A stretch of 64,000 nt of DNA from a virus, in IMG/VR virus record IMGVR_UViG_3300050343_000117, positions 64,001 through 128,000 of that record; one strand, given 5' to 3'. Position 1 is the stretch's first letter, and the number at the start of each line of letters is the position of its first letter. Position numbers and translations under genes: made by a program. A model generated the notes under the pieces. The model searched no databases. It was not told the DNA's origin and worked only from the letters and a program-made list of their open reading frames with translations. Shown here in pieces: positions 28,462 to 33,900 of this stretch.

Positions 28462-29340
28462 TTATGAGTCATTTAAAAATTTGTTTAACCATGATTCTTT
28501 TTGATGATGATTCATCAATAAGTCTTTGTATATTACCGGAAGTTCATATGCACTACTTCTCCACTGGGAGACATGTTTAAGTGCTTCGTCCTTCAGCGGC
28601 TGTAGATATTCTTCGTAACTATGAACCTTCTGAGCACTTCCTTCAGTCGTCCTATCGATACAATATAAGTCGCTTGACATTGATAGGAAGTAACACAGAT
28701 TTCCCTTCTGGTGTTCTGCTAATAACTTGTAGGTGTATGCGTGATCTTCTCCGTTACCAATATCTTCGTTCATTTTTATTTGTGCAGACTTACGACTCTG
28801 CAACATAATGAAGTCAACCGACACTGGACGTTCATCAATAAACAAATGACTTTCTTGTGGTCCTAAGTTTTCGTGAGGAGCGCACATCGATGTTCCCCAT
28901 ACACTTGCAAAGTAAGTTTCATTAACTTGCCAGTAATGTCCCGAAACCAATTCCCAACTGCAAATAGAATCACATGGTACCACACCTAACACGTCAATAC
29001 AAGGATAATGCTTATAATGATTCCACAGCGACTGTAAGTACGACGGATATAAAAAATCATCTCCATCGATCTGAGATACAAAATCACAGTCACTTTCTAG
29101 AAATACATCTAGACATGCATTCTTACCGCGGCCGGGTTTGCCATTACTTTCCGTATTGACTACACGGAATGGTAGATTAAGTGCGCATACATCTTCGTAG
29201 TATCCTTCATGAATACTATTTACAACGATCACCACTTCCCATTCGATTGGTTCAATTTTGATGACTTGTTGGGCAGATTTAACTAATCGTGCTAACTTAG
29301 GAATGTCGTTGGAAGTCAACAACGTTGTCATCAATTTCAT
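28462..29340 (-). CDS. GT-A fold glycosyltransferase (GT2-like)
   Basis: EVVIVVN, SNGKPGRGKN, QIDGDDFLYP (DxDD), GEDH. Confidence 0.75.
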   Translation of the reverse strand: MKLMTTLLTSNDIPKLARLVKSAQQVIKIEPIEWEVVIVVNSIHEGYYEDVCALNLPFRVVNTESNGKPGRGKNACLDVFLESDCDFVSQIDGDDFLYPSYLQSLWNHYKHYPCIDVLGVVPCDSICSWELVSGHYWQVNETYFASVWGTSMCAPHENLGPQESHLFIDERPVSVDFIMLQSRKSAQIKMNEDIGNGEDHAYTYKLLAEHQKGNLCYFLSMSSDLYCIDRTTEGSAQKVHSYEEYLQPLKDEALKHVSQWRSSAYELPVIYKDLLMNHHQKESWLNKFLNDS

Positions 29341-29894
29341 TATTCTGCCTCAAAGAAGAATGTCTGAAATAATCTACCGTCGTATTGGTTTGAACCAAAG
29401 CCGGGAACTACACTGCGATGATAGTACATCGCATCATATAATACCAGTCGGTTGTAAATATTTTTAGATTCTGCAACAATGTCCCAGTCACCTTCAACCA
29501 ACTGGAATTCATTAAAATCTACTGGACATGAATCTTCATGTTTCATAATTCCAGTCTGTCTATGTTTATAGATTGCAGTTCCGGAATCTAGAGGCGCGTC
29601 AGGCGTTAGATACACGACTCCCGCATAGGACATTTTATCGTGATGAATCCATGTCTTGCAGTTTTCGGTAGTGTATTGGAAGGAAGTGTTATAGTTGTCT
29701 AGTGGAAAGTATGTTATTGCTTTTCCTATGATCCCCTCTAAAGAGTTTTTCATAGAATCAACATATCCACCAGCATTGGTACATGGAGATGTTCTTAGGC
29801 CGGGATAGTTACCCGACACATTAAATTCTAGACTTAAAGCATAATCCCGAACTGAGTCGGGATCTGCATAAAAATTATCAATTACTGTAAACAT
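29340..29894 (-). CDS. 2OG-Fe(II) dioxygenase (DUF6445-like); likely start MFTVIDNFY
   Basis: IDNFYADPD, YPGLR, WIHHD (HxD), AGVVYLTPDAP..SGT, NRLVLY....YH, GRLFQTFF. Confidence 0.8.
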   Translation of the reverse strand: MFTVIDNFYADPDSVRDYALSLEFNVSGNYPGLRTSPCTNAGGYVDSMKNSLEGIIGKAITYFPLDNYNTSFQYTTENCKTWIHHDKMSYAGVVYLTPDAPLDSGTAIYKHRQTGIMKHEDSCPVDFNEFQLVEGDWDIVAESKNIYNRLVLYDAMYYHRSVVPGFGSNQYDGRLFQTFFFEAE

Positions 29895-29912
29895 AATATA
29901 CCTGTATGTGGA

Positions 29913-29928: not shown

Positions 29929-29936
29929 GTATTCAA

Positions 29937-32900
29937 TTACGATATTTTACCAATCTTGACTCTTAGATTATTGCTATTGTCAAAGATATCAATACTGTTA
30001 CTTGTGAACTCAATACGTTCATTGGGTGCTGTCCCTGTATTTAGTAGTCCACTCATATCCACAAATCCTTGGTTATTTGTCAACTCAGTAAAAGTGGAAT
30101 TCGTCGTAGTATTTATTCTGTCAACTGTTGCCCTGTAAACACGACCAGTTCCAATATGCCAATAAACATCCCCAGCATATATAGTGTTCACTGTACGGAA
30201 CTGTCTAATCATAGCTGATGCAGTTGAGTTAATGTTACTAGGTAGATTTGCGCTGGTATCAAACAATACTGCATTACCAAATCCGCCGACTGGACCCTGT
30301 GCACCTATTGAACCAGAAACTCCCTGTGGTCCCTGATCTCCAATAGCACCTTGAGCACCTTGGTCACCCTGCGCTCCAGTTTCACCTTGGGCACCTTTAT
30401 TACCTACAGATCCTTGAGCACCTTTATTACCTACCCCACCTTGAGGGCCTTGGTCACCTTGTGGTCCATCCTCACCTTGGGCACCTTTATTACCTACAGA
30501 TCCTTGAGCACCTTTATTACCTACGGCACCTTGAGCACCTTGGTCACCTACAGATCCTTGAGCACCTTTATTACCTACCCCACCTTGAGGGCCTTGGTCA
30601 CCTTGAGGACCATCTTCACCCTGAGCACCTTTATTACCTACGGCACCCTGAGCACCTTTATTACCTACGGCACCTTGAGCACCTTGGTCACCTACAGCAC
30701 CCTGATTACCTACTAGACCTTGAGCACCTTGGTAACCAACTGCTCCCTGACCACCTTGTTCACCCTGATTACCTACTAGACCTTGAGCACCTTGGTAGCC
30801 TACGGGACCTTGACCACCTTGTTCACCTTGTGGTCCGACTAGACCTTGAGCACCTTGGAATCCAACCGCACCTTGGGCACCCTGCTCACCTTGTGGTCCG
30901 ACTAGACCTTGAGCACCCTGATAACCAACTGCTCCCTGACCACCCTGTTCACCCTGTGGTCCGACTAGACCCTGTGCACCTTGGAAACCAACTGCACCCT
31001 GTGCACCCTGCTCACCTTGTGGTCCGACTAGACCTTGAGCACCTTGGTAACCAACTTCACCTTGGCCTCCCTGCTCACCTTGAGGACCAACTAGACCCTG
31101 TGCACCTCTGAATCCGACCGGACCTTGTTCGCCCTGTTCTCCTTGATTACCTACTAGTCCCTGTGCACCTTGGAAACCAACTGCACCCTGTGCACCCTGT
31201 TCTCCTTGTGGTCCAACTAGACCTTGAGCACCTTGGAATCCAACTTCACCCTGAGAACCTTGTTCTCCTTGTGGTCCAACTAGACCCTGTGCGCCTCTGA
31301 ATCCGACCGGACCTTGACCGCCTTGTTCACCTTGATTACCAACTAGACCCTGTGCCCCTTGGAATCCAACTTCACCTTGGGAACCTTGTTCACCCTGTGG
31401 TCCGACTAGACCCTGTGCACCTTGGAAACCTACAGCACCCTGACCACCCTGTTCTCCTTGAGGACCTACTAAACCTTGAGCTCCACGCTCGCCTTGATTT
31501 CCTTTATCCCCTTGTTCTCCTTGGTTACCTACTAGACCTTGAGCACCTTGAACACCGACAGCACCTTGGGAACCTTGCTCACCCTGTGGTCCAACTAGAC
31601 CTTGAGCACCTTGGAAACCAACTGCGCCTTGAGCACCTTGCTCTCCTTGATTACCTACTAGACCCTGTGCACCTTGGAAACCTACAGCACCTTGCGGTCC
31701 AGTGTCACCTTGAGCACCAGAATCACCTTGAGCACCCTGATCACCTACAGCACCTTGATTACCTACTAGACCCTGTGCACCCGCATTACCCTGCGCACCA
31801 GTATCACCTTGAGCACCCTGATCACCTACAGCACCTTGATTACCTACTAGACCCTGTGCACCTTGGAAACCTACAGCACCCTGTGCACCAGCTTGACCCT
31901 GTGCACCCGCACTACCCTGAGAACCAACTGTACCTTGCGGTCCTACAATACCCTGTGCGCCAGTTTCACCTTGTGCACCAGTATCACCTTCAGCACCTTG
32001 TGGACCTGCGTCACCTGTAGCACCTTGTGGACCTATCGGGCCTGGGGTTGTACCTGCTGGTCCTTGAGGACCCGCATCGCCAGGCAATCCTTGTGGACCT
32101 ACTGGGCCTGGCGTAGTTCCTGCTGGACCTTTAGGGCCTGGATCACCAGTAAGACCTTGACCACCCTGCGCTCCAGTTTCACCAGTTGCACCTTTTTCTC
32201 CTGTGGCTCCAGTTTCACCTTGTGCACCAGTGTCTCCGACTGCACCTTGAGGACCAACTAGACCCTGTGCACCAGTGTCTCCCTGAGCACCTTTATCACC
32301 AACGTTACCTTGAACGCCAACAGAACCTTGAAAACCTTGACTACCTTGGACACCTTTATCACCAACGTTTCCTTGTAGACCCTGCTCTCCTTGTTCTCCC
32401 TTATCGCCTTGAGAACCTTTGTCTCCGACGTTGCCCTGAATACCAGCAGATCCCTGTGGGCCCGCTTCACCCTGAGCACCTTTATCTCCTACTTCACCCT
32501 GTACGCCGGTAGAACCTTGTGGTCCATCTTCACCTTGTGCACCACGAACACCGACATTACCTTGAACACCGACAGTACCCTGTGATCCTTGAACACCCTG
32601 TCCACCCAATGGACCGACGTTACCTTGAAGTCCAGTAGACCCTTGAGCACCAGCTTCTCCTTGTGCTCCTATCTCACCGACATTACCTTGAACACCCTGT
32701 GGACCAACCGTACCCGGCGAACCTTGAGGACCCAATAGACCAACATTACCTTGAATACCTTGGAAGCCCTGTGGTCCCCGATCACCCTGAGCACCTAATG
32801 GACCAACATTACCTTGGACCCTGTTCACCTATAGCACCTTGTCCACCCTGTGGTCCTAAAGGTCCAACGTTACCTTGGACACCTTGTTCACCTTGAGAAC

Positions 32901-33900
32901 CCTGAATGCCCTGTGCACCCAATGGACCAACATTACCTTGGACACCTTGTTCACCTTGTGCGCCGGCCTCACCTTGAGGACCCAATGGACCAACGTTACC
33001 TTGGACACCTTGTTCCCCTTGTGCGCCTTGCTGACCTTGTGCACCTAATGGTCCAACGTTTCCTTGAACACCTTGTTCTCCTTGTGCTCCTTGTTCCCCT
33101 TGAGCACCCAGTTCACCGACATTACCTTGGACACCTTGCTCACCTTGAGAACCCTGAATACCCTGAGCACCCAATGGTCCAACGTTACCCTGAACACCTT
33201 GTTCTCCTTGAGCACCCCGCTCTCCTTGAGGACCTAGTTCACCGACGTTACCTTGAACGCCTTGGAAACCCTGAGCACCTCGTTCTCCTTGTGCACCCAG
33301 TTCACCAACGTTACCTTGGACACCTTGTTCTCCTTGTGCGCCCCGTTCTCCTTGTGGTCCTAGTTCACCGACATTACCTTGGACACCTTGCTCACCTTGA
33401 GCACCCTGCTCTCCTTGGGGTCCTAGTTCACCAACGTTACCCTGAACACCTTGGAAACCCTGAGCACCAACATTACCTTGTGGTCCTATAGGTCCAACAG
33501 TACCCTGCCATCCTAGAGATCCTTGTGGACCTATCGGGCCTGGATCACCTTGCGGACCTTTCTCACCAATATCAGTATTGTCAATTAGTGTGTTGATGTC
33601 AGAAATTTGTTGATCAAGTGTACTGATCAATCCTTCGTTCTGAGTTACCCGTGTGCCTAAAGCATTTACGGTAGCACTATTACCAATAGCATCACTTAGG
33701 TCTGCACTTCCGATTGCTTTGCTTACAGAGCTGTCAACGATATCACTAAGATCTCCTATAGAAATATCACCATCACCTGACAGCGTGGTTAGATCATAAA
33801 GTTCTTGGAAGTTTGCATTAATTTTTTCACTGGCTTCACGGAGAGTATCTCCCTTTCCGTCGTTGGCAGCTCCGCCTGTGTCTAGAATTCTTCTTGTCAT
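29937..33900 (-). CDS. Collagen-like long fibre, about 1320 aa, with a gp9/gp10-type baseplate anchor; split by an apparent 2-nt deletion near 32818
   Basis: N-terminal [29 protein letters not shown]; about 365 Gly-X-Y triplets across ORFs 32809..33900 and 29937..32828; C-terminal [18 protein letters not shown]. Confidence 0.9.
30276..33567 (-). repeat. Gly-X-Y repeat region with 54-nt (18-aa) higher-order units
   Basis: For example [25 protein letters not shown] and [25 protein letters not shown] blocks. Confidence 0.9.

Follow-up and report, generated by a model that had tools for sequence, protein, structure and literature searches.

What are an oxygenase and a glycosyltransferase doing in the baseplate gene cluster of a marine T4-like phage, directly behind the gene for a collagen-like fibre? 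The question is raised by a stretch of 64,000 nucleotides, here termed the window, that covers positions 64,001 to 128,000 of the IMG/VR virus record IMGVR_UViG_3300050343_000117 (137 kb, estimated completeness 83%). All baseplate genes of the window lie on the minus strand, and among them a collagen fibre gene is followed by genes for a DUF6445 2-oxoglutarate (2OG)-Fe(II) oxygenase and a GT2-family glycosyltransferase. The three fill the slot between a small gp7-like wedge gene and gp8, just as an earlier reading of the sequence (the original prediction) had described it. We consider it probable, though by no means certain, that the two enzymes act on the fibre and form with it a maturation cassette, in which hydroxylation of the collagen chains would be followed by their glycosylation.

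The fibre, treated here as one gene, is split in this record into a first frame of 363 aa (32809–33900, minus strand), with a putative anchor and 84 Gly-X-Y triplets, and a second of 963 aa (29937–32828, minus strand), with 282 triplets and a terminal knob. Both match the Collagen family PF01391 (E 5.2e-41 and 1.4e-119), and the long uninterrupted Gly-X-Y repeat that marks collagen triple-helix proteins is present. When triplets are counted in runs of five or more the sum is 366, agreeing with the ∼365 predicted; at what we take to be the usual collagen rise this gives a rod of ∼310 nm, against the ∼300 nm proposed. The N-terminal 108 aa (33577–33900, minus strand) match phrog_677, ‘baseplate wedge tail fiber protein connector’ (E 4.7e-11), and residues 3–38 match PF07880 (T4_gp9_10_N) at 23.8 bits, below the cut-off of 25; the position of the gene between gp7-like and gp8 would fit a gp9/gp10-type connector. 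At the other end lies a non-collagen C-terminal knob of 113 aa (29940–30278, minus strand), with a weak match to phrog_38396, ‘tail protein’ (E 0.0039). The predicted triplet composition agrees with our counts for the two frames: Pro occupies 13–19% of X positions and ∼1% of Y positions, and Y is dominated by Gln (55–61%) and Val (14–22%), with Lys a minor component (1–5%). No other collagen-like gene occurs in the window.

Directly after the fibre comes the oxygenase gene (29340–29894, minus strand), whose product of 184 aa matches DUF6445 (PF20043) with 45.5 bits (cut-off 24). We place its start at Met15 of the listed open reading frame because the homologues are 184 aa long; the TTG listed as start lies 14 codons upstream of it. 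The residues H84, D86, H159 and R174 (HxD...H...R) are invariant in 35 homologues of 50–84% identity. An AlphaFold2 model (pLDDT 94.3) has a single domain, and comparison by Foldseek and VIA-align, with 50 entries listed, finds the double-stranded beta-helix fold of 50 solved 2OG oxygenases at Z 9.5–14.1 over residues 1–184. By its fold, its iron triad and its basic residue for the 2OG C5 carboxylate, the protein belongs to the 2OG-Fe(II) superfamily. Its closest structures are OGFOD1 (Z 14.1, rmsd 2.6, 158 residues), the Trichoplax PHD TaPHD (13.3) and the Pseudomonas putida P4H (12.9), with PHD2 (12.4), the PBCV-1 collagen prolyl hydroxylase vCPH (12.2), the Dictyostelium PHD (12.2), the Chlamydomonas P4H (12.0) and human C-P4H-II (11.5) further down. 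Lysyl hydroxylases rank below the prolyl hydroxylases by a small gap (mimivirus Z 11.0, human LH3 10.4). The likeness to collagen P4Hs is at the level of fold only, the oxygenase having no match to PF13640 at E 0.01; nor does Pfam place it with lysyl hydroxylases of the PLOD/L230 type, and it is a single 184-aa domain without a glycosyltransferase (GT) domain. A search of Protein Data Bank sequences with the DUF6445 family profile gave chance-level matches only.

The start codon of the GT2 gene (28462–29340, minus strand) overlaps the oxygenase stop codon by one base. Its 292-aa product scores 27.5 bits against PF00535 (cut-off 23.3), and the AlphaFold2 model (pLDDT 94.4) has a GT-A fold, with Z from 16.5 to 14.5 to heparosan synthase, chondroitin polymerase (K4CP), TarS, SpsA and TarP. 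The DxD motif (D92-G-D94-D95), D116 and D199 are conserved across 35 GT2 homologues, so that profile score, fold, DxD and downstream acidic residue all agree with membership of the family. Neither enzyme of the window matches GT25 (PF01755) or the PLOD GT domain (GT_PLOD, PF25342) in Pfam at E 0.01. Some relatives of the GT2 are nevertheless fused to domains of collagen or protein modification: to 2OG-FeII_Oxy_3 in P0236 and, more weakly, in P0127, and to the PLOD-type collagen GT domain PF25342 in P0150 (E 1.3e-28) and P0248 (E 2.4e-36). In P0138 DUF6445 and GT2 stand in one frame, from which the last strand of the oxygenase, bearing the 2OG-binding Arg, is missing; this ‘fusion’ may reflect a frameshift or miscall that joined two neighbouring genes, and we count it as adjacency only. 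Scans of viral contigs with P0138 and P0248 found no relatives of either.

Each enzyme is encoded once in the 137-kb record. A DNA-level search of 50,697 phage records with both enzyme genes found no match, and at the protein level the same kind of search gave oxygenase relatives of 26–35% identity and a single partial match for GT2. The GT2 family is small (330 clusters at E 0.001 in a set of 1.84 billion representatives). Of 2192 candidates in one search for DUF6445, 2164 proteins reached E 0.001 or better. Syn9 gp52 is 28.6% identical to the window oxygenase across 91% of the query.

Does the pair keep company with collagen in other genomes? Scans based on the enzymes yielded 75 loci, in which many contigs are counted twice. 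The order fibre, 2OG oxygenase, GT2, gp8 holds in 70 and is hardly due to chance; four loci end before the fibre, and one carries an unrelated GT2 homologue of 49% identity. A scan with a gp8 alignment, which avoids choosing loci by their enzymes, added 79 loci from the best 80 of 133 relatives. Pooling all loci gave 146 with gp8, with 54 distinct gp8 sequences, of which 45 are informative; the other nine (L058, L098, L109, L131, L107, L141, L147, L149 and L150) have too little upstream DNA and were set aside. Enzyme genes are found between fibre and gp8 with all 28 collagen fibres and with none of the 17 non-collagen fibres. The latter run straight to gp8 in 16 cases, and in the remaining one (L139) a different ORF of 488 aa lies upstream, ∼150 bases from gp8. 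On the gp8 tree the rod type switches at least seven times, and the enzymes follow in all seven independent pairs (sign test p 0.0156). Phage C48C1, the nearest isolate, shares the anchor and combines it with a helical-repeat rod, without enzymes; a cultured phage with the cassette was not found. In L061 the enzymes are better kept than the wedge proteins (GT2 80% and 2OG oxygenase 69% identical, versus 47% for gp8 and 44% for gp6). The collagen–enzyme link is strict in the present clade.

The unit that is exchanged can be delimited by comparing pairs of backbones. Their identity is ∼91–94% as far as the join, vanishes shortly before the collagen starts and comes back shortly before gp8. Three pairs show this: between L025 and L126 the similarity ends at L025:4485 and resumes at L025:8471, between L094 and L096 it ends at L094:4981 and resumes at L094:9949, and between L090 and C48C1 it ends at L090:3544 and resumes at L090:6966. 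As these alignments delimit it, the exchanged unit is rod, knob and enzymes. The knob is 53–99% identical among DUF6445+GT2 cassettes and 34–42% identical in other cassettes.

Sister cassettes carry other enzymes in the same slot: DUF6445 alone (L106, L114), a 2OG-FeII_Oxy_4/Oxy_3 oxygenase with an MptE-like/methyltransferase protein (L121, L126, L128), the MptE-like protein alone (L140), or a Capsule_synth (Kps-like) protein (L090, L096, L097). By sequence the Oxy_4/Oxy_3 oxygenase matches OGFOD1 (E 7.6e-6) and the P. putida P4H (E 0.0015). The MptE-like protein has weak sialyltransferase matches only (E 0.017), and the Kps-like protein found no useful match among Protein Data Bank sequences. 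Thr and Ser together occupy X in 18–45% of triplets in the rods of MptE-like and Kps-like cassettes, versus 5–15% in DUF6445+GT2 rods; the enzyme set tracks rod composition.

The association also recurs in unrelated phage backbones, and the synteny survey, for which the original prediction had called, thus finds such enzyme pairs linked to collagen genes both within the clade and outside it. A scan with a DUF6445 alignment gave 64 further viral loci at 42–56% identity, of which nine, from about five lineages, have 36–450 collagen triplets within 6 kb. In three of these (L212, L216 and L226) a collagen fibre of 266–450 triplets, with Lys at 32–36% of Y positions, is followed by DUF6445. In the latter two the oxygenase is followed in turn by what scans as a GT4+GT25+OGFOD2-like fusion of ∼746 aa (L216:6531–8771, L226:6534–8771) and then by a 2OG-FeII_Oxy_3 gene; L212:6534–8234 is an unscanned homologue of the fusion, broken off by the contig end. 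The fusion looks like the phage equivalent of the multifunctional enzymes that act on collagen as lysyl hydroxylase and glycosyltransferase. A genome scan with a smaller GT2 alignment gave two loci. In a prophage tail module in a chromosome of Candidatus Latescibacterota (L238:431–9044, GC 61%), the order is that of the window, with abutting genes for a tape measure, a 1318-aa protein with C-terminal collagen, DUF6445 and a 39%-identical GT2.

How would such a cassette be expressed? An octamer that we take to be the T4-type late-promoter motif has 12 matches in the window versus 3.56 expected, a number reached in none of 100 shuffles; this enrichment fits T4-like late transcription. On the minus strand such octamers occur before the gp25-like gene (37195–37202), inside the gp7-like gene (34741–34748) and in the 50-base gap before gp8 (28448–28455), the last marking the downstream border of the putative fibre–enzyme transcription unit. 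None lies between fibre and enzymes on this strand, and a simple scan of the window found no terminator-like site. Given this, and the one-base overlap of the enzyme genes, the enzymes are most likely made late, together with the fibre, perhaps in smaller amounts. Between the fibre stop and the oxygenase start there is a G+C-rich hairpin (29913–29928, minus strand; intergenic folding −14.6 kcal/mol), and of 13 relatives examined, 7 have a hairpin at this position, with differing stems (including L025, L061, L064, L137, L106 and L114). In L106 and L114 a run of T comes after the hairpin, as it does in intrinsic terminators. The hairpin may set the ratio of fibre to enzyme message.

From these elements a course of maturation can be proposed. 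Fibre, oxygenase and transferase would be co-transcribed as late genes, the hairpin after the fibre probably lowering the enzyme message. DUF6445, with Fe(II), 2-oxoglutarate and O2, would hydroxylate unfolded Gly-X-Y chains in the host cytoplasm before or during trimerization, the likeliest target being the X-position Pro of GPQ-type triplets. GT2, as an inverting GT-A transferase, would then move a sugar from a host nucleotide sugar onto the new hydroxyls, and possibly onto Thr and Ser as well. The modified chains would zip, from a nucleus at a non-collagen end, into a hydrated, stabilized and shielded triple helix, which the putative gp9/10-type N-terminus would anchor on the baseplate. Rod, knob and enzymes would be swapped among phages as a unit, such that a rod travels with enzymes suited to its composition.

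The target residue is where our analysis departs most from the original prediction, which had the enzymes hydroxylate and glycosylate the fibre at Lys, with X-position Pro or Gln as alternatives. That the enzymes mature the fibre is strongly favoured by their comparative link to collagen; that Y-position Lys is the conserved site of hydroxylation is not. The collagen part holds no Lys in 3 of the 15 DUF6445-linked fibres of the clade (L049, L051, L059), for which reason Lys is unlikely to be the conserved target, and in five more it makes up 1.3% or less. Pro at X is present in all 15 (9–44%), and in every fibre no less than 6.3% of triplets are GPQ; besides GPQ, only GAQ reaches 6% or more in all of them. 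GAQ offers no classical target, and GPQ is equally common where there is no oxygenase. Since it occurs in all 15 fibres and the fold of DUF6445 is closest to that of prolyl hydroxylases, X-position Pro is our best guess from sequences and model; of the two proposed alternatives it is the one that we retain as best candidate. The course known from animal and mimivirus collagen, in which Y-position Lys is hydroxylated and the hydroxylysine then glycosylated, is in our view very doubtful for this fibre. There are GDK, GNK and GEK clusters in the window rod (Lys at 5% of Y in the long frame), the fold of DUF6445 also matches the lysyl hydroxylases of mimivirus and human, and the Lys-rich phage collagens of L212, L216 and L226 lie near DUF6445 genes. 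The prolyl hydroxylases nevertheless outscore the lysyl ones, the Lys-rich lineage has extra enzymes better suited to Lys (GT25, OGFOD2-like, Oxy_3), the window enzymes match neither GT25 nor GT_PLOD, and the lack of rod Lys in the partner fibres named above speaks directly against it.

Several observations weigh against the proposal that the two enzymes modify the fibre, whichever the residue. What the analysis shows is gene content, intact catalytic motifs, folds, the link of rods to enzyme genes, the cassette borders and the recurrence of the triad; the fibre as substrate, the order of the two steps, the residue, the sugar and the benefit are inferred from these. X-Pro is as common or commoner in oxygenase-free fibres (41–54%), and composition singles out no residue. 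Adjacent genes travel together in recombination, and linkage alone could give the co-occurrence with collagen; the 3′ border of the cassette is possibly just the first conserved sequence, that of gp8. The margin of the fold matches over small-molecule oxygenases, several of which score Z 11–12, is only ∼2 Z units. By raw count, 55 of the 64 distant DUF6445 loci lack a substantial collagen run within 6 kb, although two of the 55 have a trivial one of eight triplets. In L225 and L231 DUF6445 follows a large non-collagen protein, and the nearby collagen-like gene is almost free of Pro. The DUF6445 homologues of cultured cyanophages are found in sugar and oxygenase clusters away from structural genes; that of Synechococcus phage S-SSM7 (L156, 210347–210853, ∼35% identity) overlaps its neighbours and sits between GT11 and GT25 genes among nucleotide-sugar enzymes, so by its setting DUF6445 pairs with transferases even far from collagen. 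The 49%-identical GT2 homologue (351 aa, L076:7001–8056), on a 181-kb viral contig, lies in a nucleotide-sugar cluster with an epimerase/dehydratase, an RmlD-like protein, a methyltransferase and thymidylate synthase and with no collagen nearby, and to judge by this homologue the GT2 family extends beyond fibre cassettes. To our knowledge, many phage collagen-like fibres come without such enzymes, so modification is no general need.

Some of these points, and others, can be read in favour of different roles for the enzymes. It is conceivable, if unlikely, that GT2 glycosylates Thr or Ser of the rod directly, as happens in other bacterial collagen-like glycoproteins, and that DUF6445 tailors the sugar or modifies another site. 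The window rod has Thr at Y (long frame) and Ser at X, ∼6% each, and transferase-only cassettes (L140, L090, L096) have Thr/Ser-rich rods and no oxygenase; the S-SSM7 homologue within its sugar cluster, and the sugar-modifying AviO1, HygX and EvdO among the fold matches (Z ∼11), would agree with sugar tailoring. Such a role fits poorly with DUF6445 occurring alone, with no adjacent transferase, in L106 and L114, with protein prolyl hydroxylases as the best fold matches of the oxygenase, and with the fusion of GT2 relatives to protein-hydroxylase-type and PLOD GT domains, an architecture of hydroxylase followed by transferase. It is improbable that the enzymes are merely accessory genes in a variable slot, acting on the host envelope (e.g. 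lipopolysaccharide) or some other host molecule. In favour of it count the slot as a hot spot of recombination, the GT2 homologue in the sugar cluster of L076, and an earlier study that took glycosyltransferases near tail-fibre genes of pelagimyophages as O-chain modifiers (PMC7029224), which also counts against action on the fibre. Enzymes that served the envelope would not be expected to be absent from all 17 non-collagen fibres in the same slot, to vary in type with rod composition or to stay with the collagen in an unrelated prophage, and late expression, along with a virion protein, would leave little time to alter the host surface. We give least credence, very little indeed, to action of the pair on a small molecule, as in metabolite tailoring, or on DNA bases by hydroxylation and glycosylation. 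This possibility is raised by the Syn9 gp52-like family, which Iyer et al. 2010 (PMC2938197) place in metabolite biosynthesis, tying it to halogenase, SapC, TonB-receptor and siderophore-like clusters; the gp52 cluster of Syn9 is described there as a tandem array of dioxygenases, and an annotated 2OG-Fe(II) oxygenase lies two genes upstream of gp52. These placements, too, weigh against a fibre substrate. The genes of the window, by contrast, sit within a late baseplate operon, in a slot without any other biosynthetic gene, and the link to collagen speaks against both substrates. For DNA in particular, the AlkB-type fold matches are weaker (Z 9.6–10.8), no TET or JBP is found among the 50 entries listed, and the published pathway of glycosylated 5-hydroxycytosine uses no dioxygenase and hence lends no support.

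Should the two enzymes indeed mature the fibre, a broader and doubtful extension, which we offer as speculation, is a modular collagen glyco-code. Each rod would come with matched oxygenases and sugar transferases, and rod, tip and enzymes would be swapped to change or hide host-recognition fibres. The sets would be DUF6445 with GT2, a P4H-like oxygenase with a transferase of nonulosonic-acid type, a Kdo-type transferase, and the GT25/OGFOD2-like fusions for Lys-rich rods. DUF6445 would then be a new class of collagen hydroxylase, whose target may be X-Pro, or even Gln or Asn, and not Y-Pro or Y-Lys.

How does the proposed cassette compare with known systems? As far as we know, bacterial and phage collagens are generally taken as unmodified, the known cases of dedicated collagen modification being those of animals and giant viruses. 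The original paper on mimivirus L230 is said to describe it as a collagen lysyl hydroxylase/glucosyltransferase. L230 and R699 of mimivirus, and LH3 and ColGalT1 of animals, are treated in several papers (PMC5802723, PMC9546862, PMC12279948 and PMC6082870). Shared with them are the combination of a 2OG oxygenase and glycosyltransferases, with a collagen that in mimivirus is virus-encoded, and, as proposed here, the logic of hydroxylation followed by glycosylation; the oxygenase model aligns with the mimivirus and LH3 hydroxylases (Z 11.0 and 10.4), and distant GT2 relatives are fused to the PLOD GT domain. The window enzymes, however, are DUF6445 and GT2, not orthologous to those of mimivirus or animals, the setting is the cytoplasm of a bacterial host and a tail/baseplate fibre rather than a capsid fibril or matrix, and Lys is not conserved in the phage partner fibres. 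Protein prolyl hydroxylases, the best structural matches, align at Z 14.1–12.0 over 144–159 residues and have the same HxD...H...R site, but identity is 12–17%, the window oxygenase has no Pfam match of P4H type at E 0.01, and the Pro target, if any, would be at X rather than Y.

Prolyl hydroxylation followed by the action of a glycosyltransferase on the new hydroxyl occurs on Skp1 through PhyA and Gnt1 (Dictyostelium, Toxoplasma) and in the hydroxyproline-rich glycoproteins of plants and algae. The Skp1 pathway is likewise cytoplasmic, and the Dictyostelium PHD is among the fold matches of DUF6445 (Z 12.2); the transferases of hydroxyproline glycosylation are of other families, and sugars are added there to one residue or to a Pro-rich wall protein, not to a collagen helix. 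Transferase genes beside structural genes, with sugars on virion or surface proteins, are also known from mycobacteriophage virion glycosylation, whose targets are reportedly capsid and tail-tube proteins (Freeman et al. 2023), and from Bacillus BclA, which bears sugars on Thr; unlike the present cassette, neither has an oxygenase step. From gene neighbourhoods Iyer et al. 2010 proposed that collagen-like or tail-collar proteins are hydroxylated by 2OG oxygenases encoded beside them, with decoration of the new hydroxyl as the next step; there the decoration is sulfation, and the systems are bacterial operons with other oxygenases, not phage fibre genes (PMC2938197). A 2025 study describes a 2OG oxygenase in a virion preparation of a cyanomyovirus (PMC12801897). 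Within the literature searched no paper describes a link of collagen with DUF6445 and GT2 or names DUF6445, and the supplementary data of Iyer et al. might list further neighbourhoods.

If our preferred reading of a maturation cassette is right, bacteriophages have a collagen maturation of their own, which takes place in the cytoplasm of the bacterium and uses enzymes that are not orthologous to the known ones. DUF6445 (Syn9 gp52-like), with thousands of members in marine viral data, would gain its first function, and the glycosyltransferases among the fibre genes of marine myophages would be explained. The swappable unit of rod, tip and enzymes would likely bear on host range. Small soluble enzymes of this kind could serve to make hydroxylated or glycosylated recombinant collagen in bacteria, and the origin of collagen modification would become testable with a system of two enzymes and one substrate. 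Were the target X-Pro, Gln or Asn, the modification would be one unknown from the collagens of animals.

The genes around the cassette follow in the order gp25-like, gp6, gp7-like, fibre, 2OG oxygenase, GT2, gp8 and a giant DUF4815 protein. Upstream lie gp6 (34874–36727, minus strand) and, bordering the slot, the small gp7-like Baseplate_wedge protein of 319 aa (33915–34874, minus strand; PF23786, E 3.4e-19), which is 46–99% identical to its counterparts upstream of the fibre in relatives. Downstream the slot is bordered by the wedge protein gp8 (27020–28411, minus strand; phrog_438, E 1.6e-69; PF09215, 27.4 bits), and 3′ of this lies the giant structural gene (20633–27011, minus strand), in overlapping frames of 450 and 1728 aa. 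Ribosomal protein S21, a hallmark of pelagimyophages, was not found in the 137-kb record. A locus with 82% GT2 identity and the same fibre and gp8 flanks (L237) is on a 93-kb contig binned as a Porticoccaceae metagenome-assembled genome; it is probably a phage contig, and as a hint to the host it is weak at best. The segment 32600–33100 of the window, or part of it, is present in 20 of 24 listed public runs from 17 studies, labelled seawater or marine metagenomes. Some runs that hold it are filed as RNA, and contigs of one oligo-dT RNA library cover the stretch, which is no proof of transcription, just as the lack of a spanning contig over parts of the stretch is no proof of absence.

There remains the split of the fibre gene, which the original prediction had treated as single. 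That description applies to the relatives; in the present record two ORFs are read. As we read the sequence, two bases are missing within a repeat unit at 32815–32822 (minus strand; gap near 32817–32820). All 14 representative relatives (some of them contigs 98–99% identical) have one open frame, of 924–1428 aa with 231–398 triplets. Two extra letters at 32817/32818 are found in contigs of three DNA runs and one RNA-library run (X1, X2, X3 and X16), although these contigs are only 138–152 bases long with 3–6 other differences, and close relatives are a possible source of them. Taking these observations together with a second split gene, described next, we regard the frameshift as most probably a sequence error or else a variant private to this record, and for this reason the fibre is treated as one gene. 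The giant DUF4815 gene is a single frame of 2128 aa in a 97%-identical contig (L081) and is hence a second gene split here; two frameshifts in one record suggest sequence errors rather than biology. A different subdivision is found in L025, L126, L128, L106, L114, L140, L148 and L152, where the fibre comprises three genes, for an anchor of ∼258–325 aa, a middle part of ∼388–405 aa and then the rod-bearing part, with collagen and non-collagen rods alike.

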